From an uncultured bacterium (GTDB lineage: Bacteria > Patescibacteriota > Doudnabacteria > UBA920): a DNA stretch of 64,000 nt. Numbering within the stretch: position 1 is the stretch's first letter; every line of letters begins with the position of its first letter. Below are positions 2,764-62,172 of this stretch, piece by piece. The position numbers and the translations under genes are program-made. Location of the stretch: positions 181,738 through 245,737 of the forward strand of contig CAVVMJ010000010.1 in the NCBI GenBank assembly GCA_963749445.1. The letters run 5' to 3'. Under the pieces are notes generated by a model that was not told where the DNA came from, made no database searches, and saw only the letters and a program-made list of their open reading frames with translations.

Positions 2764-2783
2764 ATGGTTGGTTATCTTACTTT

Positions 2784-2864
2784 CTTTACTAACTACTAAT
2801 CGGTACTAATATACTAATCTCTAAGGTCTTCATTAGTATATTCGTAAAAATTAGTAGTTAGTAA
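2784..2864. repeat. H3 spacer hairpin between rplP and rpsC
   Basis: CTTTACTAACTACTAAT...ATTAGTAGTTAGTAAAG. Confidence 0.75.
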
Positions 2865-2891
2865 AGACAGATTACTTAGCTCTTTCTTCGG

Positions 2892-3549: not shown

Positions 3550-3719
3550 TGGCCCATAATTTATAGATAGTTATTGGTTATAGGGTGTAGCGGCCGGTAC
3601 GGGGAAAGGTAATAGGGTATTGGTTTTGGCGGCCGGTGTAGTGGTAGGTTTTAAGGTCTCTGTTACCTAAAACCCATTCCTTACAACCACACCGGACGCC
3701 ACACCTTATACCTTACTAC

Positions 3720-4367: not shown

Positions 4368-4491
4368 TTTATAAATTATTTACTTACTGTAATTTCTAAT
4401 TGCCTAATAATTTCTAATACTTAATATCTATTTATAAACCATACTTTGACATTCGACATTTGATATTGGCATTGTTGAAATAAATTGAAAA

Positions 4492-4836
4492 TTAAAATTG
4501 GTTAATTATTTCTTCGGTCTCTTTCGCCGCCGCCAACTTCGCCTTCTCCGCTTCCGCGGCCGCCATTTCCTGTTCCTTGGCCATCTTGCCGCCGTGGCGG
4601 ATGAATTTGCGGGTCAAAGCGAATTCTCCCAATTTGTGTCCGACCATATTTTCCGTAACGAACACCGGCACATGCGCCCGGCCATTATGCACCAAAAAAG
4701 TAAATCCCACAAATTCCGGCGCAATGGAACAAGCCCGCGACCAGGTCTTAATCTGGTCCTTGCCGGCTTTCCCCGCCAAAACTTTCTTTAACACCCGCGG
4801 GTCTACGTATGGTCCTTTTTTGGATGATCTGGACAT
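4492..4836 (-). CDS. rpsS: 30S ribosomal protein S19 with Ala/Glu/Lys-rich C-terminal extension
   Basis: 114 aa; [19 protein letters not shown]...[23 protein letters not shown] canonical S19; extra ~25 aa tail. Confidence 0.9.
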
Positions 4837-4839
4837 AGG

Positions 4840-5730: not shown

Positions 5731-5739
5731 AATGTTTAT

Positions 5740-5872
5740 CTCCAACCACCTCCCCCGCCTGCGGCGGGTACTCCTCCTTAAAAAGGAGGAGAGCTCCGCG
5801 GTATTGCGGATAACTGCGGAGCTTCCCTCCTGCCAAGGAGGGATGTCCCGCAAAGCGGGACGGGGTGGTTGT
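5740..5872. repeat. R1 GC-rich modular hairpin repeat, A-spacer-B palindromic pair
   Basis: CTCCAACCACCTCCCCCGCCTGCGGCGGGTACTCCTCCTTAAAAAGGAGGAGAGCTCCGCGG ... GCGGAGCTTCCCTCCTGCCAAGGAGGGATGTCCCGCAAAGCGGGACGGGGTGGTTG; same modules as copies at 12315, 16248, 29219, 30712, 37884, 40021, 50671, 51806. Confidence 0.85.
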
Positions 5873-5886
5873 TAAATGTTAAATGT

Positions 5887-6728
5887 TTACTTCTGCCTGC
5901 GTTGGATAATCATCCGATTGGAATATTTTTTCTTCAATCTTGTCTTTACTCCCAAAGCGTGCTTTCCCCAGGGAGTCTTTGGATATTTCATACCAATCGG
6001 GTTGTGGCCTTCGCCGCCGCCGTGCGGGTGGTCTACCGGGTTCATAACTTTACCTCTTACGTCGGCCGCCAGCCCATATGCCGCATTCTTCCGGCCTTGC
6101 CAATCCTGACGTTCATCCAGTCCGCGTTCGCCAGCTGGCCGATGGACGCCAAAACCTGTCAGGCACGCTGCGGATTTCGCCGCTGGGCATTTTAAGCAAA
6201 GCGTAACCCGCTTCCACAGTCTGTAATATAGCATAATTGCCGGCGGAGCGGGCGATTTTGCCGCCCTGTCCCGGGAATCAATTCAATGTCGTGGATAAAG
6301 TGACCGACCGGAATATTTTTTACCATCAGCCGGTTGCCGGGATGGATGTCCGCGGCTCTCGCCGTACATAATTTTGTCGCCGACCTTAAGCCCCTCTGGC
6401 GTCAAAATAAAACGCTTGCTGCCGTCTTTATAAGAAACCAGCGAAATAAACGCCGTGCGCGTCGGATCGTATTCCATGGTCTAAGAATTTAGCCGGAATA
6501 TTTTTTTTGTCCAGCTCTGGAAAAATCCACAATCCTGGACTTTGCGGATAGCGCCGCCGCCCTGGTGCCGCACGGTAATTTTGCCGCTGTTGTTGCGGCC
6601 GGCCGGCTTTGGCTTTGCTGACAATTAGTCCTTTGGGCGTTTATGGCGTTTATCCAAAACCGAATAGTCGGTAACCTGAATGGATGCGTCTGCCCTGCTG
6701 ATGTTGGTTTGTAGAGTTTTACTGCCAT
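5887..6728 (-). CDS. rplB: 50S ribosomal protein L2 (reading frame broken by at least two apparent frameshifts)
   Basis: Three consecutive ORFs in different frames (6489..6728 [14 protein letters not shown]-terminus; 6283..6477 middle; 5887..6234 C-terminus with HPHGGGEG motif) together match L2 end to end. Confidence 0.8.
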
Positions 6729-6730
6729 AA

Positions 6731-6806
6731 ATTAGTTAGTAGTTGGTAGTGAGTAGGGGGTAGCCAGCAGCTGTTTGACTACTAACTACTTACTACCCAG
6801 TAAATG
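6731..6806. repeat. H3 spacer hairpin between rplB and rplW
   Basis: TAGTTAGTAGTTGGTAGTGAGTAGGGGGTAGCCAGCAGCTGTTTGACTACTAACTACTTACTAC. Confidence 0.75.
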
Positions 6807-7173
6807 CTAAATTGTCTCCGTTGCCCTCTATCTTCTGCCCTTTCTTTAAAGTGACAATGGCTTTTTTAAAACCGGAAGTATGGCCGGAAATCCGGCCGGC
6901 ATTGCGCGTCTTGCCTTTAGTGTTTAAAATATTAACAAAAATCACGTTAACTTTATAAAACCGTTCAACCGATTTCTTGATTTCCACTTTGTTGGCATGC
7001 TTTATAACGTTAAATACGTATTTGCCGCTTTCAGCCAGCTGGCCGGCTTTTTCGGAAATCCTGGGGCCCAGCAAAACCATGGGCATGCCGGAGGCAGCGG
7101 ATGATGCGGCAGCGGCCGATGAAGCCGCGGGCTTGGTTTCTTGCGTTTCTTCCTTTTTGCTGAATAATGCCAT
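6793..7173 (-). CDS. rplW: 50S ribosomal protein L23 with Ala/Ser-rich N-terminal extension
   Basis: 126 aa; C-terminal 95 aa match L23; operon position between rplD and rplB. Confidence 0.85.
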   Translation of the reverse strand: MALFSKKEETQETKPAASSAAAASSAASGMPMVLLGPRISEKAGQLAESGKYVFNVIKHANKVEIKKSVERFYKVNVIFVNILNTKGKTRNAGRISGHTSGFKKAIVTLKKGQKIEGNGDNLAFTG

Positions 7174-7248
7174 ATTATTTACAGATTTATGGGCGCACTG
7201 TAGGGGAAGATATTATCTTCCCTTTAAACGGGCGGATGATATCCGCCC

Positions 7249-7902: not shown

Positions 7903-7972
7903 AAGCTTTTAGCGATTAGCGATTAGCCAGCAAAACTGTATGGCTAAATGCTACTTGCTAAACGCTAAATGC
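7903..7972. repeat. H1 spacer hairpin between rplD and rplC
   Basis: GCTTTTAGCGATTAGCGATTAGCCAGCAAAACTGTATGGCTAAATGCTACTTGCTAAACGCTAAATGC. Confidence 0.8.
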
Positions 7973-7976
7973 TTGC

Positions 7977-8642
7977 TTACTTCTTCTTTTTCTCTTCCTT
8001 AACTTCCGTAATCTTAACAAGCGGTTTTACTACGCCCGTGGAAATAATCCTGACAAGTCCGTTGCGATACCCAGGCACCGCGCCCTTGACTGAAATCAGA
8101 TTTTTTTTGGCGTCAACTTCCACCACTTGTAAATTCTTAACAGTCACTTGTTGTACGCCCATATGTCCGGCCATCCTTAAACCTTTGCGGGTGTGCTGGG
8201 GAAAGCGCTGGCCAATGGAACCCACGCTGCGCGGTTTGTTATGGCCGTGGGTCATGGGAAAACCTTTAAAGCCGTGGCGTTTCATGGCTCCGGCAAAACC
8301 GCGGCCCTTGCCCACGCCAATGGCGTTAACCAGTTCGCCGGCCTGAAAACCGCTGACGTCAATCTTTTGGCCGCGCTGATAAGGCTTGGTGTCGCTGACC
8401 TTAAATTCTGATAAAACGGCAAAAGCACCCAAATCCTTCAAATGTCCCGCAATGGATTTTGATGCTTTTCTCTTTTTACCAATTCCGACTTGCACCGCGC
8501 TGTACTTATCTCTTCCTTCCACGGATTTAATCTGAGTAACTATCATCGGGTCTGCCTGGATTACGGTCACCGGCAAAACCGCCCCGCTCTGGGGATCAAA
8601 ATACTGCGTCATATTCAGTTTTCGTCCGATGAGGAAATTCAT
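7977..8642 (-). CDS. rplC: 50S ribosomal protein L3
   Basis: 221 aa; GRKLNMTQYFDPQSGAVLPVTVIQ and FKGFPMTHGHNKPRSVGSIG match L3. Confidence 0.9.
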   Translation of the reverse strand: MNFLIGRKLNMTQYFDPQSGAVLPVTVIQADPMIVTQIKSVEGRDKYSAVQVGIGKKRKASKSIAGHLKDLGAFAVLSEFKVSDTKPYQRGQKIDVSGFQAGELVNAIGVGKGRGFAGAMKRHGFKGFPMTHGHNKPRSVGSIGQRFPQHTRKGLRMAGHMGVQQVTVKNLQVVEVDAKKNLISVKGAVPGYRNGLVRIISTGVVKPLVKITEVKEEKKKK

Positions 8643-9483: not shown

Positions 9484-9615
9484 ACAAACAGCACCATTTC
9501 TTAAACTCACGGCCGTGAGTTTAAGAAACCTGCGATCAAATGGAATGATGGCAAAATCCGCCAGGCTCATATCTCCCATATACTGGAGCATAAAAAATAC
9601 TAACTCTCTCGAACT

Positions 9616-9672
9616 GGATCCCGGATATTTTTTGCGGCTTATGATGTTCATCAGCGCAAAAAATCCGGGATG
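9616..9672. repeat. R3 hairpin repeat (GGATCCCGGATATTTTTTGCGGC...GCGCAAAAAATCCGGGATG)
   Basis: one of four copies (also 13307..13372, 58813..58870, 62041..62172); causes the spurious look-alike ORFs 9481..9720 and 58670..58903. Confidence 0.8.
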
Positions 9673-9823
9673 GACACATGTGTAGTTAGCCCGATTTTCT
9701 GGGCTGCCCAAATATCTCACAGCCGATAAATCGGCTAACTACGGGCTTAAATAGCCAAAAGGACTACCCTTTCAAGGATAGTCCTTTGTCTGTGTTAATC
9801 CGTTATCAATCCGTGTTTATCTT

Positions 9824-12303: not shown

Positions 12304-12314
12304 ATGGATTATGC

Positions 12315-12374
12315 GCGGAGCATCCTCCCCTGCCAAGGGGAGGTGTCCCGCGAAGCGGGACGGAGGGGTTGGAG
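12315..12374. repeat. R1 terminal inverted repeat (B orientation) abutting stop codon of DUF559 gene
   Basis: GCGGAGCATCCTCCCCTGCCAAGGGGAGGTGTCCCGCGAAGCGGGACGGAGGGGTTGGAG ends at 12374; gene stop begins at 12375. Confidence 0.85.
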
Positions 12375-12725
12375 TCAACCAAGATTTTTCTTAATCTCCT
12401 GTAACACTCCTTCTAAATTTTTTATGACATCCTTATTTTCAAATCTTATAACTTTTATATTCAGCCTTTGTAAATATTCGGTTCTATTTTCATCTTTGGC
12501 GTAACCTTGTTCGGAATCATGAGGACTGCCGTCAAGTTCAACGGCAAGCTTCTTATCGGCGCAATAAAAATCTACAATATACCTGCCAATACCGTGTTGC
12601 CGGCGAAATTTATGGCCCAATTGCTTATTTTTTAAATGATTCCAGAGCCTGGCTTCGGCTGGCGTTAAATGCTTTCTTAAGTCTTTTCTGTAATTTTTCA
12701 GACCGATGATGTTGTTTAACCTCAT
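12375..12725 (-). CDS. DUF559 domain protein (Vsr-like / PD-(D/E)xK endonuclease fold)
   Basis: 116 aa; LTPAEARLWNHLKNKQLGHKFRRQHGIGRYIVDFYC...ELDGSPHD motif set; about 65% identical to 29279..29635; framed exactly by R1 inverted repeats. Confidence 0.7.
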   Translation of the reverse strand: MRLNNIIGLKNYRKDLRKHLTPAEARLWNHLKNKQLGHKFRRQHGIGRYIVDFYCADKKLAVELDGSPHDSEQGYAKDENRTEYLQRLNIKVIRFENKDVIKNLEGVLQEIKKNLG

Positions 12726-12789
12726 ACTCCAACCCCCCTCCCGCCGCTTTGCGGCAGACTCCCCCTTAACAGGGGGAGATGCTCCGCGG
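12726..12789. repeat. R1 terminal inverted repeat (A orientation) abutting start codon of DUF559 gene
   Basis: CTCCAACCCCCCTCCCGCCGCTTTGCGGCAGACTCCCCCTTAACAGGGGGAGATGCTCCGCGG begins one base after the ATG (12725); its GGAG sits in Shine-Dalgarno position. Confidence 0.85.
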
Positions 12790-13229: not shown

Positions 13230-13306
13230 CCCAGCCGAGCATCATCGCAACACATGGGCGAGAGCCGGGATCCAGTTACCGGCTCAAATACTGTATACCG
13301 ATTCTG

Positions 13307-13372
13307 GGCCCCGGATATTTTTTGCGGCCTGCGATAACCATCAGCGCAAAAAATTCCGGGGTGGAAACTATT
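13307..13372. repeat. R3 hairpin repeat copy
   Basis: GGGCCCCGGATATTTTTTGCGGCCTGCGATAACCATCAGCGCAAAAAATTCCGGGGTGG. Confidence 0.75.
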
Positions 13373-16131: not shown

Positions 16132-16247
16132 AAAAAATTAGTTTTTAGATATTAGTTGTTAGGTTTTAGGTTTTAGGTTTTACATTGTGCAGCGGAAAAG
16201 TATATACTTCGGTATATACAAAATTTTCAAAGTTCTTTTGCAAATCC

Positions 16248-16393
16248 GCGGAGCTTCCCCTCCTTCCCTCCTTGCTGAGGAGGGGTGGATCGCGTTAGCG
16301 AGACGGGGTGGTATTTATCCGCAAAGACTCCAACCACCTCCCCCCTCGACTTCGCTCGGGGTACTCCTCCTTAAAAAGGAGGAGAGGCTCCGC
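16248..16393. repeat. R1 repeat, B-spacer-A pair (gene-less derivative of the DUF559 element)
   Basis: GCGGAGCTTCCCCTCC...GGAGGGGTGGATCGCG...GACGGGGTGGTATTTATCCGCAAAGACTCCAACCACCTCCCCCC...TACTCCTCCTTAAAAAGGAGGAGAGGCTCCGC; between fusA and rpsG. Confidence 0.85.
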
Positions 16394-16438: not shown

Positions 16439-17053
16439 CTATCTCCGCCCAAACCTCGCAAAATGCGCAAACGCCTTATTGGCCTCTGCCATCCTGTGCA
16501 CGTCTTCTCTCTTCTTTATGGCTGCACCGGTGCGGTTGTAGGCGTCCATAATTTCTCCGGCCAATTTTTCCTTCATGGGCGCGCCTTTTTTGGCCCTGGC
16601 CGCGGCCAACAGCCAGCGGATGCCGAGCGTGGTCTTGCGCGGCTCCTGAACTTCCATCGGCACCTGATAGTTAGCCCCGCCGATTCTGCGGGATTTTAAC
16701 TCCATCATCGGGGCGACGTTTTTTAACGCGATATCAAATACCGCTCGGCCGTCCAACTTTTGCGGTGCCGCTGATTTTTGCGGAACTGCAGTATTCCCCT
16801 CCTTTTTAAGGAGGGGCGTCTGCGCAGCAGACGGGGTGGTTGGAGATTTGACTGAAACAGCAACCGGAGCCGCCACGGGCATCGCGGCCATTTTTTTCTC
16901 CACAATCTCCAAAGCGTCGTAAAAAATCCTGCGCGCCACGTTTTTCTTGCCGCGCTGCATCAAATAATTTATAAATTTGGCATACTTGACCGAGCCGAAT
17001 TTCGGGTCCGGCAAAGGCACGTGTTTGTCGTAGCTCCTTGATTTTCTGGGCAT
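16439..17053 (-). CDS. rpsG: 30S ribosomal protein S7 with about 46 aa in-frame insertion partly encoded by an R1 half-repeat
   Basis: 204 aa versus about 156 typical; N-terminal (PRKSRSYDKHVPLPDPKFGS) and C-terminal (KKREDVHRMAEANKAFAHF) S7 blocks flank AMPVAAPVAVSVKSPTTPSAAQTPLLKKEGNTAVPQKSAAPQKLDG. Confidence 0.9.
   Translation of the reverse strand: MPRKSRSYDKHVPLPDPKFGSVKYAKFINYLMQRGKKNVARRIFYDALEIVEKKMAAMPVAAPVAVSVKSPTTPSAAQTPLLKKEGNTAVPQKSAAPQKLDGRAVFDIALKNVAPMMELKSRRIGGANYQVPMEVQEPRKTTLGIRWLLAAARAKKGAPMKEKLAGEIMDAYNRTGAAIKKREDVHRMAEANKAFAHFARFGRR
16801..16864. repeat. R1 half-repeat (B) inside rpsG coding sequence, in frame
   Basis: GGAACTGCAGTATTCCCCTCCTTTTTAAGGAGGGGCGTCTGCGCAGCAGACGGGGTGGTTGGAG. 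Confidence 0.85.
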
Positions 17054-17055
17054 GG

Positions 17056-17130
17056 TTTTAGCTTTTAGCGATTAGCTTTTAGCGATTAGCCAGCCATGTC
17101 TGGCTAAATGCTAACTGCTAAATGCTAACT
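17056..17130. repeat. H1 spacer hairpin (TTAGCG/GCTAAA tandem-repeat arms)
   Basis: TTTTAGCTTTTAGCGATTAGCTTTTAGCGATTAGCCAGCCATGTCTGGCTAAATGCTAACTGCTAAATGCTAA; copies also at 57..130, 1587..1670, 7903..7972, 17553..17632. Confidence 0.8.
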
Positions 17131-17136
17131 TCTTGT

Positions 17137-17550
17137 TTACTTCTTCTTGGCTCCATACTTAGACCGAGAGCGTTTCCGACCGTCAACGCCTAATGTGTCC
17201 AATTTCCCTCTGATGATATGATAGCGCACGCCGGGCAAATCTTTTACCCTGCCGCCGCGGATCATCACCACACTGTGTTCCTGTAAGTTGTGGCCGATGC
17301 CCGGAATATAGGCAATCACTTCCATGCCGTTGGTGAGTTTGACTTTGGCGACTTTGCGCAAAGCCGAGTTCGGCTTTTTGGGCGTGGTGGTATAAACCTT
17401 AAGGCACACGCCACGCATAAACGGCGCGCCTTTGGCAATCCACAAGGTGCGGTTTTTGATTAAGTTGACGCGGCGCAACAAAGCCGGAGCCTTGCTTTTG
17501 GCCTGTAAACTGTGCCTGCCGTGCCTGACTAACTGGTTGATTGTGGGCAT
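17137..17550 (-). CDS. rpsL: 30S ribosomal protein S12
   Basis: 137 aa; [12 protein letters not shown]...[14 protein letters not shown]...[11 protein letters not shown] canonical S12. Confidence 0.9.
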
Positions 17551-17552
17551 TT

Positions 17553-17632
17553 CGTTAGCTTTTAGCGTTTAGCGATTAGCGATTAGCCAGCCATGTTTGG
17601 CTAAAAGCTAACTGCTAAATGCTAAATGCTTT
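17553..17632. repeat. H1 spacer hairpin upstream of rpsL
   Basis: TTCGTTAGCTTTTAGCGTTTAGCGATTAGCGATTAGCCAGCCATGTTTGGCTAAAAGCTAACTGCTAAATGCTAAATGC. Confidence 0.8.
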
Positions 17633-17862
17633 AACGGATTAAACTTGAATAAGCAATAAAAAAGCCGACAAAAGATGTCAGATCTTCTGCTTTCGCCTGC
17701 TTGGTACTCATCAGAAACCTATTGATGTCGGCCGGTGGCCTGCTTCCCAAAACCTGCGACTAAAAAATAGTGATTCGCCGCTCGCGCGGCGGGTTTCTTA
17801 TTCAATTAAAAGAATTATATACCAAGCTTGCAAAAAAGTCAACATTTAGATAATGTTATTTT

Positions 17863-23256: not shown

Positions 23257-25065
23257 TTAATGGCCGAAAAATCCTCTGGCTAAACTGTCCGGCAATAAAC
23301 AAAGGCTGATGTTTTTATCTTTGCAAAACTTTTTAATTTCAGGGTCGCGCACACTGCCGCTTGTGGCTATTATAGCACAAATCCCGGCTTTTGCCAAAAC
23401 TTCCACCCCGTCCACGAACGGGAAAAAACTGTCGCTGTAGGCCACCGCGCCTTTGGTTTGATGTCCCGCGTCCAGGGCCCGTTTGATGGCCAACTGGCAG
23501 CAGCCGACTCTGTCCTGCTGCCCCACACCGTTGCCGATTAACATCCCGTCTTTGACCAAAGTGACAGTGTTGCTGTTGCTGGTGGAACCGATTGCCCAGG
23601 CCAAAAGCATATCGGATTTTTGCTGATCGGATAATTTGCCGATAAACTCCGGCCGAGGGTTCCCCTCGGTTTCCGAACGGCTCCGGTCCGAGGGGAACCC
23701 TCGGGTCAAATCCAAAACAAAATCATAATTCGGCTGGGCCAAAAACCCGCCGCGCACATAACGGAACCGACGATGGCTATCCGGCGAGTTTTTTGACAGA
23801 TTCCCCAGCGCGGGGTTTACCAAAAACCGGCACTTGTCGCCTTTGCGTTTTAACATTCTGACCGCTCCTTCGGTAAAGGATGGAGCAATAATCCCATCAA
23901 GCAACCTCCGCGGCTTGCCCGCCGAAGCTTCAGCGAAGGTGGGAGCTTTCCCCTCCTTTTCAAGGAGGGGTCCGGCCGAAGGCCGGGGGGTGGTTGGAGC
24001 CATCCGATGTGTAAGCAATATTTCCGCCAATTTTTCGTCAACCAAAAAATTTACCATCACCAGCCCGCCAAAAATCGCGCGCAAATCCCCTTCCAGCATT
24101 TTTTGGATGGCCGATGACGGCGTATCGGAAACCGCCGCACCGCACGGGTTGCCGTGCTTTACCCCCAAAGCTATATTCATTATTCCCTTCCCCCTCTGGG
24201 GGAAGGTGGCCGTGAGGCGGCCGGATGAGGGTTTTATTACGGATTGCAACAAAGTGGGATTGCAGTCAAACCCTGCCGCAATGTGCGTTATGGTCTGCAG
24301 CAATCTGTCCACGTCCGCCCAGTTGTTGTAACTTACCGGCATGCCGGCCAATAATCGGAATTTCGATAGCGATAATTCATCACTATCTGAAATCGCATAC
24401 AATCCCGCCGGCGTCTGGCATGCATTCTCGCCATATTTACAAATTGCGGCGCGGTGACCAACCATTCCTTCGTATTCGCCCGCTCCGTGATAGCGCGCGG
24501 ACGACAAACAGTACTCCGCCACAATAAATTCCGCTTTAGCTGCAAGCTGGTCCAAAAATTTTTCTTTATCAGGCTTGCCGTTTTTTAACCAGCTGATGAC
24601 TGCCACCCTGTCGTCCGGATCACAAACGACGATTCTTCTTCCCTTGGCCGCGCTCCGGAGCATTGTCGGCCCGCCAATGTCAGTCTTTTCGATAACAGCT
24701 TCCCTGGCCTTTGCCGATCCGACTTCCGATTTTCCGATTTTTCCGATTTCTTCCGACAACGGATACAAATCCACGCACACCAAATCTATCCACGGGATTT
24801 TTAATCGATTTAATTCCTGCCGATCTTCATCGGTATCCCGCGCCAAAAGCCCGGCGTGGACTTCGCGCGACAACGTGACTACGCGATGACCCAAAATCGC
24901 CTTACCGCCGGCCAAAGAAGCCACATCAGTCACTTTAATTCCTGCGTCTGACAAAGCTTTGGCTGTCCCTCCGCTCGCCAAAATTTTAAATCCCAAATCC
25001 GCCAACTCTTTGGCAAATTCCACAATCCCGTCTTTATTATAAACCGAAATCAGTGCGGTTTTCAT
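23257..25065 (-). CDS. purH: bifunctional AICAR transformylase / IMP cyclohydrolase, with several in-frame repeat-encoded insertions
   Basis: 602 aa; N-terminal MGS-like domain (MKTALISVYNKDGIVEFAKELADLGFKILASGGTAKAL) and AICARFT domain; about 80 aa longer than typical because of insertions at 23653..23706, 23941..24000, 24170..24235, 24711..24760. Confidence 0.9.
   Translation of the reverse strand: MKTALISVYNKDGIVEFAKELADLGFKILASGGTAKALSDAGIKVTDVASLAGGKAILGHRVVTLSREVHAGLLARDTDEDRQELNRLKIPWIDLVCVDLYPLSEEIGKIGKSEVGSAKAREAVIEKTDIGGPTMLRSAAKGRRIVVCDPDDRVAVISWLKNGKPDKEKFLDQLAAKAEFIVAEYCLSSARYHGAGEYEGMVGHRAAICKYGENACQTPAGLYAISDSDELSLSKFRLLAGMPVSYNNWADVDRLLQTITHIAAGFDCNPTLLQSVIKPSSGRLTATFPQRGKGIMNIALGVKHGNPCGAAVSDTPSSAIQKMLEGDLRAIFGGLVMVNFLVDEKLAEILLTHRMAPTTPRPSAGPLLEKEGKAPTFAEASAGKPRRLLDGIIAPSFTEGAVRMLKRKGDKCRFLVNPALGNLSKNSPDSHRRFRYVRGGFLAQPNYDFVLDLTRGFPSDRSRSETEGNPRPEFIGKLSDQQKSDMLLAWAIGSTSNSNTVTLVKDGMLIGNGVGQQDRVGCCQLAIKRALDAGHQTKGAVAYSDSFFPFVDGVEVLAKAGICAIIATSGSVRDPEIKKFCKDKNISLCLLPDSLARGFFGH
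23941..24000. repeat. R1 half-repeat (B) in frame inside purH
   Basis: GGGAGCTTTCCCCTCCTTTTCAAGGAGGGGTCCGGCCGAAGGCCGGGGGGTGGTTGGAG encodes APTTPRPSAGPLLEKEGKAP. Confidence 0.8.
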
Positions 25066-28521: not shown

Positions 28522-29218
28522 CGATTGCCCTCCTTGGCAACTGGATCCCTCTTCTGCATCAGCAAAAGAGGATACTACACCGCACAACGACGGCCTTAGA
28601 ATTGGACGGGTCAGGGCTTATCCCAATCTTTCCCATGCTCTCAACCGTACTTGGTCGTGAACTGAATCGGGACATGCCCTAATCAGACATTACATCCACG
28701 ATCGTTCCGCAATTGAGCACATTTGCCAACTTGGTAAGTCGGCGGGAAAAACTGAGCACCCCTTTTCTCGGAGAATGAGGTATTATTGCATCCGAGCCTT
28801 TGACCCGTAATCTTTTGAGCATTGCTGCTCAGAAAATTTTATCCAATTCTTTTAGATAAAAATTCCTAAGCACCATCCTCTGCCCAACAAAATACCTAGC
28901 CTTCTCGTTTTGGCTAGGTTGGTGTTTGTTCTAAATTCCGTTTAACTTTTTCCCCTTCAAACCCCACCTAGCCCGTCCCAAACATAGCCCTTAACAAAAA
29001 GGACCGGGCGGACGACAATGGTGGTGGAAAGGTTTTTATACATTCTTGTACTGGTTAACTGATACAAGTATACAACAAACTGGCAAATTGTCAATATATT
29101 TATAAATTTGGCTTAAATAAAAGACTAATTTTATATGATGGCGTAATACTTAATGAAAATTTATTGGTTATCCCCAATCACGAACAATATATTCGGCTAT
29201 CCTGTTATTCGGTTATAC

Positions 29219-29278
29219 GCGGAGCTTCCCCTCCTGCCAAGGAGGGGTGTCGCGCGAAGCGTGACGGGGTGGTTGGAG
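29219..29278. repeat. R1 terminal inverted repeat (B) abutting stop of DUF559 gene
   Basis: GCGGAGCTTCCCCTCCTGCCAAGGAGGGGTGTCGCGCGAAGCGTGACGGGGTGGTTGGAG. Confidence 0.85.
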
Positions 29279-29635
29279 TTATTGCAAATGTTTCCCGATT
29301 TCAGCCAACACCCCTTCTAAATTTTTAATTACATCGCCGTTTTGAAAACGGATAACCTTTATGCCTTTGCTCTCCAAATATCTTGCGCGTTCCTGGTCTT
29401 TTGTGTAGCCCTGTTCCGTATCGTGAGGCGAACCATCAAGTTCTATGGCTAATTGCCTGCTTGGGCAATAAAAGTCCAGGATATAATAACCAATGCCGTG
29501 CTGCCGCCTGAATTTTACTCCCAATTGGTTATTCTTGAGATGCACCCAAAGTCTGGCTTCTGCCGGGGTTAAATGCTTGCGTAGTTCTTTCCGGTTATTT
29601 TTTGAGCCTATTAGATTATTCAACCTATCAGTCAT
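29279..29635 (-). CDS. DUF559 domain protein (Vsr-like endonuclease fold), second intact copy
   Basis: 118 aa; LTPAEARLWVHLKNNQLGVKFRRQHGIGYYILDFYC...ELDGSPHD; framed exactly by R1 inverted repeats as at 12375..12725. Confidence 0.7.
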   Translation of the reverse strand: MTDRLNNLIGSKNNRKELRKHLTPAEARLWVHLKNNQLGVKFRRQHGIGYYILDFYCPSRQLAIELDGSPHDTEQGYTKDQERARYLESKGIKVIRFQNGDVIKNLEGVLAEIGKHLQ

Positions 29636-29698
29636 GCTCCAACCCCCTCCCCCGCCTTCGGCGGGTACTCCCCCTTGACAGGGGGAGAGGCTCCGCGG
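29636..29698. repeat. R1 terminal inverted repeat (A) abutting start of DUF559 gene
   Basis: GCTCCAACCCCCTCCCCCGCCTTCGGCGGGTACTCCCCCTTGACAGGGGGAGAGGCTCCGCGG. Confidence 0.85.
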
Positions 29699-30655: not shown

Positions 30656-30711
30656 GGATTATTTTTTAAGATTTACTATAGTGAATCTGCTTTTCAGATG
30701 CACGGATATCC

Positions 30712-30840
30712 GCGGAGCTCCCCTCCTAATATAGGAGGGGTGTCCTGCGAAGCGGGACGGGGTGGTATTATCTGTGCCGGTATTTTACCACCTCCCCGCC
30801 CTGCGGGCGGTACTCCTCCTTTTCAGGAGGAGAGTACTGC
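30712..30840. repeat. R1 repeat B-spacer-A pair (gene-less)
   Basis: GCGGAGCTCCCCTCCTAATATAGGAGGGGTGTCCTGCGAAGCGGGACGGGGTGGTATTATCTGTGCCGGTATTTTACCACCTCCCCGCCCTGCGGGCGGTACTCCTCCTTTTCAGGAGGAGAGTACTGCAG. Confidence 0.85.
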
Positions 30841-30886
30841 AGCCGATAAATCGGCACGCTACACTAAAGCGTATGCCCCGCACAAG

Positions 30887-36532: not shown

Positions 36533-39500
36533 TTAAACCACAAAATTTATTAAGCGGTCAGGCACAAAAATCACCCGCCTGATATTTTGGGTTCCGACGA
36601 TTGCCACAGCCTGCTGTTTAACTTGATTCTCATCGCTTCCCGGCGACACCGTAATGCGGCCTTTGACTTTGCCGTTGACCTGCACCACGATTTCAATTGT
36701 GGCGTCAACGATTTTTGCCGGGTCAAACGCCGGCCAGCTTTCCAGCTGGAGCGATTTTTTGCCTCCGATGATTGAATTTAGTTCTTCTGCCAGATGCGGC
36801 GCGAACGGATGTAACAATTTTAGAAAAATTTTAAAATCTTCCTTCGAAATATTTTGGCCAAAAGCTTGAATATTTTTTAAATTTAAATATTTTTCAAACT
36901 TTGGATCTTTTGATTTAATCATTTCTTCTCGGGTAATATAAATTTCGTTCATAAACACCATAAGACCGGATACGCAGGTGTTAAATCGAAAATTTTCTAT
37001 ATCCTCTTCGACTTTTTTTATAGTTTTATTCAAAGCTTTCTCAACTTGTCCGTCAGTAAAATTCATTACATCGTTATCTTCCATCGCCTTTAGACTTAAA
37101 CCGACCTGATATACCTTATCCAAAAATCTTTTGACCCCGACTACGCTTTTGTCGTTCCAGGCGATGGTGTCCTCGTGCGGACCCAAAAACAACTCAAACA
37201 TGCGCAACGTGTCCGCGCCGTGCGAGGCTACAATATCCTGCGGATTGACCACGTTGCCGCGGCTTTTGGACATTTTTTCGCCGTCCGCAGCCAAAATTAT
37301 GCCGTGAGGCACGCGTTTAACATACGGCTCCCTTGATGTAACCAATCCTTGATCAAACAAAAATAAATTCCAAAACCGGCTGTAAAGCAAATGCAAAGTC
37401 GTGTGCTCCATGCCGCCAAAATAAACGTCCACCGGCGTCCAGTATTTTTGTTTGCTGATGGACGCGAATTCTTTTTTGTCTTTTGGATCGATATACCTTA
37501 ACCAATACCAACTGCTACCTGCCCATTGCGGCATAGTGTTGGTTTCTCTTTTTGCCGGCGATTTGCAATTCGGACATTTTACATTAACCCAGTTTGATAT
37601 TGCGGCCAATGGCGATTCTCCTGTTCCTGTCGGCTGGTAATTTTTGACCGGCGGGAGTTTTACCGGCAAATCCTTTTCGGCTACCTCCACAATACCGCAT
37701 TTTGGGCAATGAATAATCGGAATCGGCTCGCCCCAGTAGCGCTGGCGGGAAAATACCCAATCACGGAGTTTATACTGGACAGTCGCTCTGCCGAATTTTG
37801 CTGCCATTTTGGGAATTGCATCTTCTGACTTCATTCCGGTAAATTCACCGGAATTAATCAAAGCACCATAATCCGCAACGGCTCCGACCACCTCCCCGCC
37901 TGACGGCGGTACTCCCCCTTGAAAAGGAGGAGAGCTCCGCGTGACATCCGAGAATAACTGCAGAGCTTCCCCTCGCTTCTTTAAGGAGGGGTGGACGCGA
38001 AGCGAACGGGGTGGTTGGAGACACAACTTGCTTAATTGGTAAACCGTATTTCTTCGCAAACTCAAAATCCCGCTCATCATGCGCCGGCACGGCCATAATC
38101 GCGCCGGTGCCATAACCCCAAAGCACGTAATCCGCCGCCCAAATCGGGATTTCTTCTTTTGTTGCAGGATTAATCGCCTTAATACCTTTTAACTCCACTC
38201 CGGTTTTTTCCTTACCTTCTGATGAACGATCCATTTCCGATTTTTTCTTTGCCTTTTCTACATATTCCTCAACTTCTTTGTAATTTGATCCGCCTTGGCG
38301 GATGAAATTTTCTGTCAACGGATGTTCCGGTGCCACCACCATATATGTCGCGCCGAAGATAGTGTCCGGCCGCGTGGTAAAAACTTTGATTAACGGCAAG
38401 ACGGCGGCCAAAACTTCCGGTTCTTGCTCGGCGCGAAAATGAACCAGTTGCCCTGCTTTTCTAGTGATAGGCGCGTTCAAAACTTCCGACAGTTGGGCAG
38501 CTTGATCGTCGGAAATTGCATCGTCGTTGGGATCATGTAAAATTGTAATTGAACCGGCTTTATTTTTAATCGCCGAAAAATCAAAACTCCATTTAAAATT
38601 TTTTTGAAAAGGCCTGGGTGGTCTTTAAAATTTGGGCTGACAAAACCGCCGACCAATACCAGTCCAGCGATTTTTGCCTGTAATTTTTCCAGAACTTTCA
38701 TCGCCACCACCGTTCCCAAACTATGGCCGACTAAAATTGTATTTTCGCCAAAACGGCAATTTTTCAAAACAAAATTAACCTGCGCTTCTTCACTGGGATT
38801 AGTCGGATTCGGCAAGGCCGGTATATCCACTTTCATACCTTTAAATTCCAATTGGCTTTTTAGCCAAGGATAGAATCTGGTTTCCGGCGTTTCATTCCAA
38901 CCGTGCAAAATTACGTAATTATGTTTTGCGTTTAGGGTAAAATTAATTTCCGCGCCCACAGACTTGCCAATCCAGTTTTCCTGTTGGAGCTTAACCGCTT
39001 CCGGCCACTCGGGCAGATGTTTTAATCCTTCCAAAAGTTTTTCCGCATACGCAGTAATTCTTAAATACCACTGGCGCAATTCTTTTTTTTCAACGACTGT
39101 GCCGCAGCGCTCGCATTTGCCGTCTATGACTTCTTCGTTAGCCAAACCGGTTTTGTCTTTCGGACACCAATTAATCAAACCTGTTGCCTCGTAGGCCAAT
39201 CCTTTTTTAAAGAATTGCAAAAACAGCCATTGTGTCCATTTATAATAATTCGGGTCTGTGGTATTTATTTCCCGCGACCAATCAAAACTTAAACCCCACG
39301 ACTGCATTTGTTTTTTGGCATTTTTGATATTTTTCGCCGTGGTTACCGCGGGCTGGACGCCTTTTTTATGGCATAATTTTCCGCCGGCAAACCAAACGCG
39401 TCCCAGCCGATGGGAAACATAACCTCATAGCCCCGCATACGATGATAACGAGCATAAACATCCGCGGCCACGTACGGCCGCAAATGCCCCATATGCAAAC

Positions 39501-39639
39501 CCTCGCCGCTGGGATATGGAAATTCCACTAAAACATATTTTTTCGGCTTTTTGGCAAAATCCGCGGCCTGAAAAATTTTCTTGGTTTGCCAAACCTTTTG
39601 CCACTTGGCCTCAATTTTTTTGTGATTATACTTTTCCAT
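36533..39639 (-). CDS. leuS: leucyl-tRNA synthetase with an embedded YdeN-type serine-hydrolase domain and an R1-repeat insertion; reading frame broken by about three apparent frameshifts
   Basis: ORFs 39343..39639 (HMGH), 38477..39307, 37854..38480 ([24 protein letters not shown] editing motifs) and 36533..38113 (KMSKS: EKMSKSRGN; anticodon-binding and C-terminal domains) are collinear with LeuS; junctions at A6 (39351), T7 (about 38605) runs and inside the R1 element. Confidence 0.85.
37884..38030. repeat. R1 repeat A-spacer-B pair inside leuS coding sequence
   Basis: CCGACCACCTCCCCGCCTGACGGCGGTACTCCCCCTTGAAAAGGAGGAGAGCTCCGCG...GAGCTTCCCCTCGCTTCTTTAAGGAGGGGTGGACGCGAAGCGAACGGGGTGGTTGGAG; encodes [20 protein letters not shown]... 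in the same relative frame as the TatD copy. Confidence 0.85.
38420..38932 (-). other. YdeN/RBBP9-type alpha/beta serine hydrolase domain embedded in LeuS between the WIGKS motif and the CP1 editing domain
   Basis: [24 protein letters not shown]...[18 protein letters not shown]...LVGGFVSP...[11 protein letters not shown]...QLVHF aligns along its length with B. subtilis YdeN (YIIHGY...WFPWLKKRL...YLVAHSLGCPA...ILVSGF...SKDDQIVPF...HGGHF): Ser-Asp-His triad conserved. Confidence 0.7.
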
Positions 39640-39691: not shown

Positions 39692-40666
39692 TCAGATGTT
39701 AAATAGTTTTTTTGCATTTTTGGTCGTCGATTCCGTAACTTCTTTAATTGACAAACCTTTTATCTCCGCAACCTTATCGGCCACAAACCTTACATAGCTC
39801 GGCTCGTTTCTTTTGCCTCGATGAGGCGCCGGCGATAAATACGGGCAATCGGTTTCCAGTAAAATTTTATCAAGCGGCGCGAGTTTTACCAACTTTTCCA
39901 TATTGCCGGTTTTGTCAAATGTGATTATTCCGTTAAAGCTGACATACGCGCCGCGGTCGAGGAATTTTTGGAGATATTCTGGACTTCCCGTGTAACTGTG
40001 CACCTCAAACCTCAAACCGGCTCCAACCCCCTCCCCGCCCTTCGGGCGGTACTCCCCCTTGTCAGGGGGAGAGGCTCCGCCTATATCCTCGGTCAACTGC
40101 GGAACTTCCCCTCCTGCCAAGGAGGGGTGTCCCGCGGAGCGGGACGGGGTGGTTGGAGTTTTTTCCTCATCAAGTATCTCCAGTAAATCATCATAAAGCG
40201 ACTCATCACCTTTTGCCGGGCGACTGTGGACTACTAAAACTTTATTTAATTCTTTTGCTAATTTCACTTGCTCCCGAAATGCAGCTTTTTGTTTATCTTT
40301 GACTTGCTGATGGTCGCCATCCGCAGGAAACCGATAATAATCCAGCCCGCACTCCCCTATCCCGACAACTTTCGGGTTTGTCGCTATACTTTGGTATAGC
40401 GCTTCGTCAAAATGCTCTTCGCGGGTAAGAAAATGCGTTTCTTCTTCATCAACGTATTGGGAATGGGTATGCTCGGGATGCAAACCGACAACCGCGTAAA
40501 TCCCCTCTTTAAATTGATTAGCCAATTCCACGGCCTCTCGTGACGTGTCTATTTGCGACCCGACGTTTATGACCCAAGTATCATTATCAAGCGCCCGCTG
40601 CAAAGCTTCTTTGGCATCGCCCTTAAACGCGCGAAAATTCACGTGAGCGTGGGTGTCAATCAACAT
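39692..40666 (-). CDS. tatD: TatD family hydrolase with about 50 aa in-frame insertion encoded by an R1 pair
   Basis: MLIDTHAHVNF, GIGECGLDYYR, VVHSR, ETDCPYL motifs; 324 aa versus about 260 typical. Confidence 0.85.
   Translation of the reverse strand: MLIDTHAHVNFRAFKGDAKEALQRALDNDTWVINVGSQIDTSREAVELANQFKEGIYAVVGLHPEHTHSQYVDEEETHFLTREEHFDEALYQSIATNPKVVGIGECGLDYYRFPADGDHQQVKDKQKAAFREQVKLAKELNKVLVVHSRPAKGDESLYDDLLEILDEEKTPTTPSRSAGHPSLAGGEVPQLTEDIGGASPPDKGEYRPKGGEGVGAGLRFEVHSYTGSPEYLQKFLDRGAYVSFNGIITFDKTGNMEKLVKLAPLDKILLETDCPYLSPAPHRGKRNEPSYVRFVADKVAEIKGLSIKEVTESTTKNAKKLFNI
40021..40158. repeat. R1 repeat A-spacer-B pair, in frame inside tatD
   Basis: CTCCAACCCCCTCCCCGCCCTTCGGGCGGTACTCCCCCTTGTCAGGGGGAGAGGCTCCGC ctatatcctcggtcaactgc GGAACTTCCCCTCCTGCCAAGGAGGGGTGTCCCGCGGAGCGGGACGGGGTGGTTGGAG; encodes KTPTTPSRSAGHPSLAGGEVPQLTEDIGGASPPDKGEYRPKGGEGVGAG. 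Confidence 0.9.
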
Positions 40667-50401: not shown

Positions 50402-51793
50402 TTAATAATGCTCTTTATAATATTTTAGCATATCTTCAAAATAATCGTAAGTGATGGCGGTGCGGATTTTTTTCATTAGGTTTAGATAAAAACGCAGGTT
50501 GTGCATTGTGGCCAGGCGGGTGCCGAGCTGTTCACCGGTGGCAAATAAATGCCGCAGATAAGATTTGGTGTGGTTTAAACACAAGTAGCAATCGCAAGTG
50601 TTGTCTATGGGGGTAAAATCTTCTTTGTATTTTTCCAGGCGGATGTCGATGGTTTGGTAGCCTTCTACAACTCCAACCCCCTCCCCCCGCTTCGCGGGAT
50701 ACTCCCCCTTGTCACCCCTCGACTCCGCTCGGGGTGACCCTGAGCGGTAGCCGAATGAGTCAGGGGGAGAGGCTCCGCGTTTGTTCGAGGATATACGCGG
50801 AGCTTCCCCTCCGAGCTTGGGAGGGGTGGCCGCGCCAGCGGCCTGTTCGACTTCGCTCAAGGCCGCCCTGAGCCCAGCCGAATGGGCGGACGGGGTGGTT
50901 GGAGTCGGAATATTTTTTGCCGCGATATAAAGCCTTCCATGCCTCGCCTCCCTTGTCGGAATAACGCAATCAAAAGTATCGCAGCCGCGCGCCGTACCCT
51001 GGACAATATCGTAAGGCGTGCCTACGCCCAAAAGATGTTTGGGTTTTTGTTCCGGCAAATGCGCTATTGACCACTCCACGGCTTTCATCATTTCTTCAAA
51101 CGGCTCGTCAACCGTGGCTACGCCGCCGATGGCAAATCCTTCAAAACCAAAATTCGCCATCGCTTGGGCGGAAATTTTACGCAAGTCCTCAAAATTCGAA
51201 CCCTGAACTATACCCCAAAGTTTTTGTCCGGAGTTGATGGGGTCGCCGTGCTTCATAATATTTAAATGTTCGCGGATGGCGCGCTCGGCCCAGCGGTTGG
51301 TCAGCTCCGTGGAGATTTTACTTTTTTCATACTCAAACGGCACGCCGGAAAAATCATCCAAAATTAAAGCGATGTCGCTGCCCAGGTTGGCCTGGATTTG
51401 AATGGATTTTTCCGGCGATAAAATTTCCTGTTTGCCGTCCAAATCAAAATTAAACAGCACCCCGGCTTCCATTACCTTTTTAAATTTTGCCAGTGATTGC
51501 ACCTGAAATCCCCCGCTGTCAGTAAATATCGGCCCTTTCCAGTTCATAAATTGGTGCAAGCCGCCGGCTTTATAAATCAGTGCGTCGCCCGGACGTTGCC
51601 ACAAGTGGTAAGTATTAGCGAGTATCATTTCCGCGCCCCAAAATTTTAACTCCTCGCTCGTAACCGACTTAACCGTCCCCCTCGTCCCAATAGGCAAAAA
51701 CGCCGGCGTATGCACATCCCCGTGCGCGGTATGTATTATGCCGTTTCTTGCGGCTGATGAGGAATCTTTTTTTTGGATGTCGAAATAAGGCAT
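50402..51793 (-). CDS. tgt: queuine tRNA-ribosyltransferase with 78 aa in-frame insertion encoded by an extended R1 element
   Basis: 463 aa versus about 375 typical; FLPIGTRGTVK, DSGGFQ, DCVIPTR, CDCYLC zinc site all present; insertion NIPTPTTPSAHSAGLRAALSEVEQAAGAATPPKLGGEAPRISSNKRGASPPDSFGYRSGSPRAESRGDKGEYPAKRGEGVGVVEG. Confidence 0.9.
   Translation of the reverse strand: MPYFDIQKKDSSSAARNGIIHTAHGDVHTPAFLPIGTRGTVKSVTSEELKFWGAEMILANTYHLWQRPGDALIYKAGGLHQFMNWKGPIFTDSGGFQVQSLAKFKKVMEAGVLFNFDLDGKQEILSPEKSIQIQANLGSDIALILDDFSGVPFEYEKSKISTELTNRWAERAIREHLNIMKHGDPINSGQKLWGIVQGSNFEDLRKISAQAMANFGFEGFAIGGVATVDEPFEEMMKAVEWSIAHLPEQKPKHLLGVGTPYDIVQGTARGCDTFDCVIPTREARHGRLYIAAKNIPTPTTPSAHSAGLRAALSEVEQAAGAATPPKLGGEAPRISSNKRGASPPDSFGYRSGSPRAESRGDKGEYPAKRGEGVGVVEGYQTIDIRLEKYKEDFTPIDNTCDCYLCLNHTKSYLRHLFATGEQLGTRLATMHNLRFYLNLMKKIRTAITYDYFEDMLKYYKEHY
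50671..50904. repeat. R1 repeat, extended A-X-B form, in frame inside tgt
   Basis: CTCCAACCCCCTCCCCCCGCTTCGCGGGATACTCCCCCTTGTCACCCCTCGACTCCGCTCGGGGTGACCCTGAGCGG...GAGGCTCCGCG...GCGGAGCTTCCCCTCCGAGCTTGGGAGGGGTGGCCGCGCCAGCGGCC...GGACGGGGTGGTTGGAG. Confidence 0.9.
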
Positions 51794-51805: not shown

Positions 51806-51956
51806 GCGGAGCCTCCCCTCCTATTCCAAGAATTTCATTAGAACATAGGAGGGGTGGATCGCGAAGCGAGACGGGGTGGTATATAAATTGCCGATAACTA
51901 CCACCTCCCCCGCCTGCGGCGGGTACTCCTCCTATTCTAGGAGGAGAAGCTCCGCG
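51806..51956. repeat. R1 repeat B-spacer-A pair immediately upstream of tgt
   Basis: GCGGAGCCTCCCCTCCTATTCCAAGAATTTCATTAGAACATAGGAGGGGTGGATCGCGAAGCGAGACGGGGTGGTATATAAATTGCCGATAACTACCACCTCCCCCGCCTGCGGCGGGTACTCCTCCTATTCTAGGAGGAGAAGCTCCGCG. Confidence 0.85.
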
Positions 51957-51971
51957 ATTTTGCTCATTAAC

Positions 51972-52004
51972 TATACCAAAACAGCGCCCCGATGTCGAAG
52001 CGCT
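51972..52004 (-). terminator. intrinsic terminator after small ORF 52017..52199
   Basis: minus strand AGCGCTTCGACATCGGGGCGCT GTTTTGG. Confidence 0.5.
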
Positions 52005-58749: not shown

Positions 58750-58812
58750 TGTCCATCCCGGCCGAGCCCAAGCATACAGGGCGAGAGACGGGACCCGAAA
58801 AAAAGCTTATAC

Positions 58813-58870
58813 CTGGATCCCGGATATTTTTACGGCTGATAATATTCAGGAACGTAAAAATTCCGGGATG
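58813..58870. repeat. R3 hairpin repeat copy downstream of recombinase gene
   Basis: GGATCCCGGATATTTTTACGGCTGATAATATTCAGGAACGTAAAAATTCCGGGATG. Confidence 0.75.
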
Positions 58871-58994
58871 ACAACTGAATATACGTCTGTATAAAACTAC
58901 CACTTTAAAAGCCCGTCTGGTTTTCCAAACGGGCTTTTAAGTTTGTTGACTCTTACTCATCTGTTTCTTATTACTGATTAATTATTGCCGATTA

Positions 58995-61992: not shown

Positions 61993-62040
61993 AGTCGTAT
62001 TTTAAATGATAAATATTTGATTTTAATATAGATGCCATCC

Positions 62041-62172
62041 CGGAATTTTTCAAGCTTGAGGATGTTTTCAGTCTTGAAAAATATCCGGGATCCAGATTTT
62101 TGCTTCTACTGGATCCCGGATATTTTTTACGGCTGCTGATATCCCAACGCGTAAAAAATTCCGGGATGACAA
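62041..62172. repeat. R3 hairpin repeat, tandem pair
   Basis: CCGGAATTTTTCAAGCTTGAGGATGTTTTCAGTCTTGAAAAATATCCGGGATCCAGATTTTTGC...GGATCCCGGATATTTTTTACGGCTGCTGATATCCCAACGCGTAAAAAATTCCGGGATG. Confidence 0.75.

Follow-up and report, generated by a model that had tools for sequence, protein, structure and literature searches.

A YdeN/RBBP9-type serine hydrolase inserted in a Patescibacteria leucyl-tRNA synthetase: a candidate guest domain that changes its site

The leuS gene discussed here lies in a 64,000-nucleotide stretch of DNA from an uncultured bacterium of the Patescibacteriota (Doudnabacteria, UBA920), namely positions 181,738 to 245,737 of the forward strand of contig CAVVMJ010000010.1 (assembly GCA_963749445.1); this whole stretch is referred to as the window. 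The gene occupies the minus strand from 39639 to 36533, was delimited by open reading frames (ORFs), Pfam matches, an AlphaFold2 (AF2) model and synteny, and encodes a bacterial-type leucyl-tRNA synthetase (LeuRS) into which a serine hydrolase of the family PF06821 is inserted. As assembled, leuS is not a single uninterrupted reading frame but is spread over four ORFs, and correction of three frame breaks on the basis of these ORFs and the three-frame translation yields a protein of ~1,035 amino acids. In the reading direction, and always on the minus strand, the N-terminal catalytic half (38933..39639) with the HMGH motif, the ZN1 region and the first break is followed by the inserted hydrolase of ~182 amino acids (38385..38932), located between the first linker strand of CP1 and CP1 itself, a position termed site 1 in the following. 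It was recognized by Pfam, by profile comparison with solved structures and by AF2/Foldseek. Next come the CP1 editing domain (38016..38384; PF13603, E 9e-56), a GC-rich palindromic repeat of ~150 nucleotides that resembles REP (repetitive extragenic palindromic) or MITE (miniature inverted-repeat transposable) elements and holds the third break (37871..38021; repeat families D1, D2, D12, D13, and D15), and finally the C-terminal half (36533..37876; its called ORF product is P0270) with the ZN2 region and an empty second insertion site (site 2), the KMSKS motif, and the anticodon-binding and C-terminal domains.

Both HMGH and KMSKS are readable in the translation, and the class I core, CP1 and the anticodon-binding domain are all present, with Pfam matches to tRNA-synt_1 (PF00133), tRNA-synt_1g (PF09334), and tRNA-synt_1_2 (PF13603), as well as PF08264 on P0270. 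The canonical TTRPDT and AVPAHDERD motifs of CP1 are intact. When the repeat-encoded peptide was removed, the full-length corrected protein was modeled with a predicted local distance difference test score (pLDDT) of 88.7 and a predicted template modeling score (pTM) of 0.78, and the model superimposes on Thermus thermophilus LeuRS (2BTE) with a TM-score of 0.80 (target-normalized) or 0.71 (query-normalized). Within this model, the hydrolase stretch, framed by strands 226-236 and 417-422, has pLDDT values of 87-95 and follows a regular beta-alpha-beta order. Canonical bacterial LeuRS (2BTE; Escherichia coli 4AQ7/4ARC) share the architecture, including HIGH, KMSKS, and a CP1 at the bacterial position after ZN1, but lack both the ~185 extra residues that lead from the first linker strand to CP1 and the repeat-encoded peptide after CP1. 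The statement of the initial annotation that LeuS normally has no such domain is thus in line with the solved LeuRS structures, none of which contains it. The nearest named relatives of the window LeuRS are Patescibacteria (Doudnabacteria, Paceibacterota, Uhrbacteria, and others), and the gene order M16 peptidase / AP-endonuclease / AI-2E transporter / methionyl-tRNA synthetase / TatD / LeuS / (Sua5) / MFS transporter is common to the window and contig L006, while the synteny around leuS on contig L001 likewise matches the window. We read the window as encoding one continuous LeuRS of the Patescibacteria (candidate phyla radiation, CPR) with an inserted hydrolase.

The two junctions of the insert are open. 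Upstream, the LeuRS strand encoded by 38933-38974 continues stop-free into the start of the hydrolase (38897-38932), and downstream, the frame reading FKWSFDF...HDPNDDAIS...QLVHF continues stop-free into VFTTRPDT (38361-38384). The insert interrupts the beta-ribbon linking CP1 with the catalytic core. Against PF06821 (Ser_hydrolase), the corrected segment of 183 amino acids scores 47.1 bits (E 3.3e-12; profile positions 1-157 of 172), with a curated cut-off of 22 bits for this family. A profile built from the insert and its relatives found YdeN (1UXO, E 3.8e-28) and RBBP9 (~8e-19) as the closest solved proteins. The isolated domain was modeled by AF2 with pLDDT 96 and pTM 0.92, and Foldseek aligned this model to 1UXO with TM-scores of 0.89/0.87 and a root-mean-square deviation of 2.1 A and to RBBP9 with a TM-score of 0.86, as compared to ≤0.75 for the next-best folds. 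In the sequence alignment, the serine of GHSLG (codon 38720..38722), the first aspartate of NDD within HDPNDDAIS (38523..38525), and the histidine of VHF within QLVHF (38439..38441) correspond to S75, D138, and H165 of RBBP9 and to their equivalents in YdeN, the serine being the YdeN nucleophile; aspartate and histidine are accordingly the predicted remaining members of the catalytic triad. By alignment and predicted fold, the insert is hence confirmed as a complete YdeN/RBBP9-type alpha/beta serine hydrolase with a putative Ser-Asp-His triad.

This is what had been claimed in the initial annotation, which placed such a domain in frame just upstream of CP1, and the Pfam match, the profile match to 1UXO and the open junctions bear it out. 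All five sequence blocks quoted there are found in the translation. Of the proposed span (38420-38932), the end at 38932 stands, whereas the domain runs slightly past 38420, roughly to 38385. The insert shares with YdeN (1UXO), RBBP9 (2QS9, 7OEX), and the PF06821/DUF1234 family in general the minimal alpha/beta-hydrolase fold of ~180 amino acids (TM-scores of 0.86-0.89), the HG oxyanion motif, the GHSxG elbow, and the aspartate and histidine at aligned positions. However, YdeN and RBBP9 are free-standing, whereas the window domain is embedded in another enzyme, and sequence identity amounts to only 22-24 %. The clade of embedded domains furthermore differs by conserved motifs of its own, and Glu108 of RBBP9 is not obviously conserved in it.

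The second frame break lies within the hydrolase, at a coding-strand A7 run (38599..38605, seven T on the plus strand). It splits the domain at positions ~105-122 of the hydrolase hidden Markov model (HMM), and one added A restores the frame. That the T7 run near 38605 is one base short had been anticipated in the initial annotation; two further breaks in leuS had not been listed there, one at an A6 run (~39361-39367) and one within the palindromic repeat at 37871-38021, which lacks 2 nucleotides relative to the copy that is read in frame in the TatD gene. The two parts of the hydrolase each match the HMM (positions 2-122 with E 1.6e-52, positions 105-181 with E 2.6e-24), and relatives read RPFEKNFxWxFDF across the region of break 2 in one frame. 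Neighboring genes also shift frame, as shown by tblastn against the syntenic contig L006 for the M16 peptidase (~45878, T5) and the AI-2E transporter (~43620, A7). Over 17 kb this adds up to five breaks, of which four coincide with homopolymers and all have intact protein motifs on either side; the breaks in the neighboring genes point to homopolymer indel errors throughout this assembly, and the sister contigs L001 and L002, which belong to one ENA assembly, are likewise full of frame breaks. Since the neighboring genes share such homopolymer breaks, both hydrolase halves still score strongly, and an essential gene follows downstream, the break at 38599-38605 is most likely an assembly error rather than biology.

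That leuS is broken three times within 3.1 kb and that a second assembly of this exact sequence was not found, exact look-ups of the ORF products P0001 and P0270 having returned no record, might also be taken to indicate that a separate hydrolase gene was mis-assembled into leuS or that leuS is decaying. We consider such an artefact very improbable, as both junctions lie in continuous reading frame, the identical junction recurs in dozens of independent assemblies (NCBI, JGI, ENA, and Logan), frame breaks at homopolymers also affect the neighboring genes, and neither the LeuRS motifs nor the two hydrolase halves show decay. Two biological explanations for the fragmented frame were rejected. 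Programmed -1 frameshifting, for which A_AAA_AAG and the A7 run might serve, does not fit because break 3 needs the opposite shift, the neighboring genes are broken as well, and intact relatives manage without a shift; break 1 does fall on A_AAA_AAG, a classic dnaX-type -1 slippery heptamer at which a -1 shift would yield the conserved sequence, but in view of the remaining breaks at homopolymers this was judged to be coincidence. The relatives include many LeuRS ORFs of 400-500 amino acids that cover only the C-terminal part, which brought to mind a naturally split enzyme like that of Aquifex; this was dismissed because one such ORF, on L007, sits at a contig end and another, on L008, belongs to a longer uninterrupted ORF.

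When 1.84 billion cluster representatives were searched by HMM, 6,012 hits to the family were obtained, of which the best 150 proteins were classified. Among these, 44 domain copies, each from a separate 50 %-identity cluster, were classified as embedded in LeuRS. Site 1 accounts for 37 of the 44, and the hydrolase usually occupies residues ~240-490. Dozens of intact Patescibacteria LeuRS clusters thus hold the insert at exactly the junction of the window, which always lies between a GAEIxF strand and an xVFTTRPDT strand, and Pfam scans of representatives showed the order tRNA-synt_1, Ser_hydrolase, LeuRS editing domain, Anticodon_1 in intact single polypeptides. An example is MBI4272991.1 (P0122) from Candidatus Uhrbacteria, which carries the GenBank label 'leucine--tRNA ligase'. 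The comparison with related genomes that had been proposed in the initial annotation therefore yielded both outcomes, recurrence at the same junction and a syntenic orthologue (P0129, see below) in which site 1 is empty. A k-mer-based profile search mostly returned free-standing hydrolases, and profile scans of GTDB genome contigs with the window hydrolase and with a three-sequence alignment gave no confirmed relative.

Substitution of the triad in orthologues would have spoken against an enzymatic domain; catalytic serine and histidine proved to be present in all LeuRS-embedded copies (44/44 each), while the acid column is less uniform, with aspartate in 29, glutamate in 8, and a non-acidic residue in 7. 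The HG oxyanion motif is found in 39 of the 44, and the embedded clade shares its own motifs LPNxxxPxxEEQV, FxWxFDFxKIK, and HFxxxxEPxxL. This pattern of conservation points to selection for catalytic function and speaks against a dead passenger. Nor does the hydrolase stand in for a lost editing site, given that the CP1 motifs are preserved both in the window LeuRS and in nearly every site-1 host.

Insertion into LeuRS is not confined to one place. Site 2, which follows RQRYWGxPIPxxxCxxC, holds a member of the hydrolase clade in P0129, P0003, P0256, P0189, P0233, and P0155, and further copies occur after CP1 (P0258) and before DWPE...NWIG (the pre-WIG site, P0262). One cluster has a valyl-tRNA synthetase (ValRS) as host (P0185), and two clusters have the scaffold/wing region of SecA (P0178, P0269, and locus L003). 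The SecA gene of L003 (481-3984; GCA_040384245.1, JAWVHA010007857.1), with the same hydrolase clade inserted between scaffold and wing regions, forms a single frame only if in-frame TGA is read as glycine, namely in GHSL*A, TNMA*RGTD, and TMP*RRYSEGLHQ, which includes the glycine of the GHSLG motif; by these codons, L003 is assigned to a code-25 organism of the Gracilibacteria/Absconditabacteria type. A free-standing relative (P0004, 48 % identity) is encoded as a separate gene on L009. In the wider family, terminal fusions were found to methyltransferase, IMPase, peptidase S51 (P0254), other alpha/beta hydrolases, and NUDIX, and in two clusters (P0008 and P0182) to a PF01588 tRNA-binding-type domain.

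Two comparisons between syntenic genes show how the guest has behaved. P0129 (L006, 8001-11051) is the positional orthologue of the window LeuRS, with 89 % identity in the N-terminal and 75 % in the C-terminal part of the catalytic body, and its hydrolase is the closest relative of the window domain (64 % identity), but it resides at site 2 while site 1 is empty. CP1 of P0129 is only 45 % identical to that of the window and reads TTWPHT in place of TTRPDT, which suggests that, in one of the two lineages, the CP1 region was exchanged or diverged unusually quickly. L001 is another syntenic relative; its LeuRS body and CP1 are 84 % and 80 % identical to those of the window, but its hydrolase, at site 1, is only 42 % identical. 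In a neighbor-joining tree of 162 domain copies (181 columns), the window copy clusters together with the hydrolases that P0129 and P0003 carry at site 2 (83 % bootstrap; 84 % when the site-1 copy of P0145 is added), and the L001 hydrolase groups with P0200 and P0158 (99 % bootstrap), whose hosts are at most ~47 % identical to L001. Nearly all LeuRS-, ValRS-, and SecA-embedded copies fall, together with about ten short proteins, into one clade with 87 % bootstrap support. From the comparisons with P0129 and L001 it follows that the guest domain moved within one gene lineage and was swapped between lineages. The shuffling looks ancient and recombinational rather than like the work of a recent mobile element.

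In-frame residence in essential LeuRS, ValRS, and SecA, a patchy distribution, and sites that differ between close relatives are features shared with inteins and other selfish insertions, and a selfish domain insertion had indeed been offered as an alternative in the initial annotation. This idea survives in part, as the site changes between syntenic orthologues and the domain was exchanged between lineages, but serine and histidine have been kept throughout and the DNA bears no mobile-element signature. The insert shows no GC anomaly and no terminal repeats (the sole flanking repeat is a 7-nucleotide chance match), Pfam detected no Hint, homing-endonuclease, or intein domains, and its junction residues (...FTLNAKH and ...PLIKVFTT) do not form the Cys/Ser...HN-Cys/Ser/Thr splice junctions of inteins. 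In contrast to inteins, the guest is an ordinary metabolic-type enzyme with conserved catalytic residues and without sign of excision. In its extreme form, the idea is that the insertion has no function, being selfish or neutral, and that a surface loop puts up with a domain that persists only because it is rarely deleted precisely. Besides relocation and exchange, it would account for the faster evolution of the domain relative to its host (42-64 % vs 84-89 % identity), for the variable acid column, and for the degraded motifs of the L001 copy (HC for HG, GHSSG, and ATP for GGF). We nevertheless give it little credence, since invariant serine and histidine across 50 %-identity clusters, the largely retained HG motif, the very high confidence of the domain model, and the absence of the above-mentioned mobile-element features from the insert all point the other way.

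What, then, might the enzyme do? To our knowledge, the known editing modules of synthetases all derive from a few dedicated folds, and we know of none that is an alpha/beta hydrolase. Attachment of a hydrolase to a synthetase as such recalls the editing and trans-editing modules of aminoacyl-tRNA synthetases (CP1, INS/YbaK, AlaX, and DTD), and the aminoacyl-ester chemistry that could be proposed for it would be the same. The insert differs by its unrelated fold, a predicted covalent Ser-His-Asp mechanism, the lack of a fixed position, and its occurrence in SecA; when compared with these known editing folds, it matched none of them and only alpha/beta-hydrolase families were hit. A synthetase with an appended hydrolytic domain is a known kind of protein, and it is the evolutionary behavior of the guest that is unusual. 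A 2026 survey of domain insertions covers the LeuRS editing domain solely as an inserted synthetase module (PMC13114784), and full-text literature searches retrieved no account of a YdeN/RBBP9-type hydrolase within a synthetase; inserts in CPR LeuRS, whether NUDIX or others, were not described there either.

RBBP9 cleaves bonds to single Leu, Ile, Met, Phe, Tyr, or Trp residues with a free alpha-amine (PMC8866121), and because of this preference, a role of the embedded domain in aminoacyl-ester hydrolysis would be chemically plausible by analogy. The domain could, for instance, serve as a third proofreading or deacylase site that hydrolyzes mischarged aminoacyl-tRNA(Leu), a released non-cognate aminoacyl-adenylate, or D- or N-blocked aminoacyl-tRNA; working in cis or in trans, it would back up CP1 in organisms from which free-standing deacylases have been lost. 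In its favor, the insert hangs on the CP1 linker, the hosts are almost exclusively class Ia editing synthetases (LeuRS far ahead of ValRS), PF01588 is a fusion partner in P0008 and P0182, RBBP9 traps just those single hydrophobic amino acids, and serine and histidine are conserved in all embedded copies. Set against this are the occurrence of the clade at no fewer than four structurally different LeuRS positions and in SecA, so that the geometry relative to the tRNA 3' end is not conserved, and the presence of unrelated enzymes in the same LeuRS loops. Furthermore, with the CP1 editing motifs intact in the window and nearly all listed hosts, there is no obvious gap to be filled, and the alpha-amine ligand Glu108 of RBBP9 aligns to no conserved acid in the embedded clade. 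The PF01588 fusion itself is ambiguous, since CsaA, a secretion chaperone, has this fold as well. Overall, we regard a proofreading role as unlikely.

The same RBBP9 chemistry allows for a different scenario, in which an RBBP9-like aminopeptidase clips hydrophobic N-terminal residues, Leu included, from scavenged peptides right beside LeuRS or ValRS and thereby contributes to the amino-acid supply of an auxotrophic symbiont. RBBP9 is indeed an aminopeptidase for hydrophobic N-terminal residues, the host belongs to the Patescibacteria, described as a group without many biosynthetic pathways (PMC11665869), and another fusion partner of the family is a peptidase (S51, P0254). SecA as a host and the fusions to methyltransferase, IMPase, and NUDIX are a poor match, however, and the residues of the RBBP9 substrate pocket are not clearly conserved, and we deem this scenario decidedly improbable.

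On balance, we lean towards the view that the insert is an active, autonomous guest hydrolase that is tethered to LeuRS and has been relocating over evolution, its activity being judged from sequence conservation. According to this model, the CPR clade of PF06821 would live mostly as a guest in housekeeping proteins, among which it has been repeatedly relocated and exchanged, and in the window the hydrolase would fold and work as an autonomous enzyme tethered to LeuRS. Its predicted substrates are small acyl compounds. By analogy with RBBP9, these would be ester or amide derivatives of one hydrophobic amino acid whose amine is free; simple esters would be the alternative. The part of LeuRS would be to provide expression and a surface loop that tolerates the insert, not a defined geometry for handing over tRNA, and the hydrolase would presumably operate independently of the tRNA 3' end; a fixed 3'-end geometry is argued against by the varied insertion sites and the SecA host.

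Several observations weigh against this model of a tethered autonomous enzyme. The hosts are very strongly biased to LeuRS, such that a passive passenger fails as an explanation unless LeuRS is uniquely permissive. Two clusters (P0008 and P0182) have the family fused to a PF01588 tRNA-binding-type domain, site 1 and the post-CP1 site lie on either side of the mobile editing domain, into which the tRNA 3' end is received, and RBBP9 chemistry suits an aminoacyl ester. In addition, the tree is distance-based, comprises 181 columns, and leaves several deeper groupings weakly supported, and a genuine frameshift in this strain is a residual possibility.

Bacterial synthetases are usually viewed as architecturally conservative. 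The present case extends this picture, as an alpha/beta serine hydrolase with conserved catalytic residues sits on the CP1 hinge of LeuRS and recurs across Patescibacteria. If the domain acts on aminoacyl esters, it would represent a new class of proofreading enzymes and provide a function for orphan bacterial YdeN-family proteins; if not, it would still be notable that syntenic orthologues of one essential gene carry the same guest at different sites. A far-reaching version combines both aspects: the CPR clade of RBBP9/YdeN-type proteins would be a hydrolase of aminoacyl esters (aminoacyl-tRNA or -adenylate), and hence a new alpha/beta-hydrolase class of translational quality control, wired repeatedly into LeuRS and ValRS beside the editing domain, and whole enzyme domains in these genomes would behave as cassettes, moving from loop to loop on the surface of essential proteins. 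For the time being, this combination is speculative and would have to be called doubtful. In either case, the finding bears on how accessory enzymes are packaged in reduced genomes and on which LeuRS loops tolerate engineering. Such proteins are already public, labeled only 'leucine--tRNA ligase', and frame-broken long-read assemblies fragment them.

The hydrolase is not the only guest of these loops. Pfam detected NUDIX domains at site 1 and/or after CP1 as well as Ham1/ITPase-like and IS200-type Y1_Tnp domains at site 1 of other LeuRS. Other guest domains are borne by the LeuRS P0123, P0125, P0128, P0155, P0189, P0233, P0258, and P0127, and by that of L008 (3075-6413), a continuous ORF of ~1,100 amino acids with two NUDIX inserts. 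In P0127, a HAD-like segment (DFDGVLGDT) was read by eye, without Pfam confirmation, inside the second zinc knuckle. On the sister contig L002, a high-GC fragment resembling a Ser/Thr kinase (HRDIKPANLLLD, positions 1-690) abuts a lower-GC, abruptly starting C-terminal part of LeuRS (691-7195), and this contig is probably a chimera.

The palindromic repeat after CP1 (GC 0.62 vs ~0.44 for leuS) belongs to a set of GC-rich (~0.62) elements of ~150 nucleotides with internal hairpins, ACTCCAACCaCCTCCCC...GGGGTGGTTGGAGT, that are scattered through the window (5739-5879, 12305-12379, 12727-12787, 16231-16393, 16768-16846, 23949-24000, 29209-29283, 29636-29696, 30702-30841, 37871-38021, 40020-40163, 50660-50906, and 51842-51972). 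Several copies sit within ORFs and are read in frame, as in the TatD gene (...TPTTPSRSAGHPSLAGGEVPQL...SPPDKGEYRPKGGEGVGA...) and in leuS, and in this respect they resemble the in-frame Rickettsia palindromic elements; the literature searched contained no description of such in-frame palindromic repeats for Patescibacteria. Repeat-like peptides of the type SPPxxGG...GGV are also present in LeuRS and ValRS of other CPR bacteria (P0129, P0214, and P0185). Two further repeat families of the window are mostly intergenic, an AT-rich palindromic one, TTAGCGTTTAGC...GCTAAATGCTAAATGC, and a hairpin unit, CCCGGATATTTTTTGCGGC...GCGCAAAAAATCCGGG; their copies lie at 42-151, 1593-1688, 7930-7988, 17044-17148, and 17541-17645, and also at 9613-9676, 13303-13366, 58811-58874, and 62033-62171, and they may be terminators or other REP-like elements.

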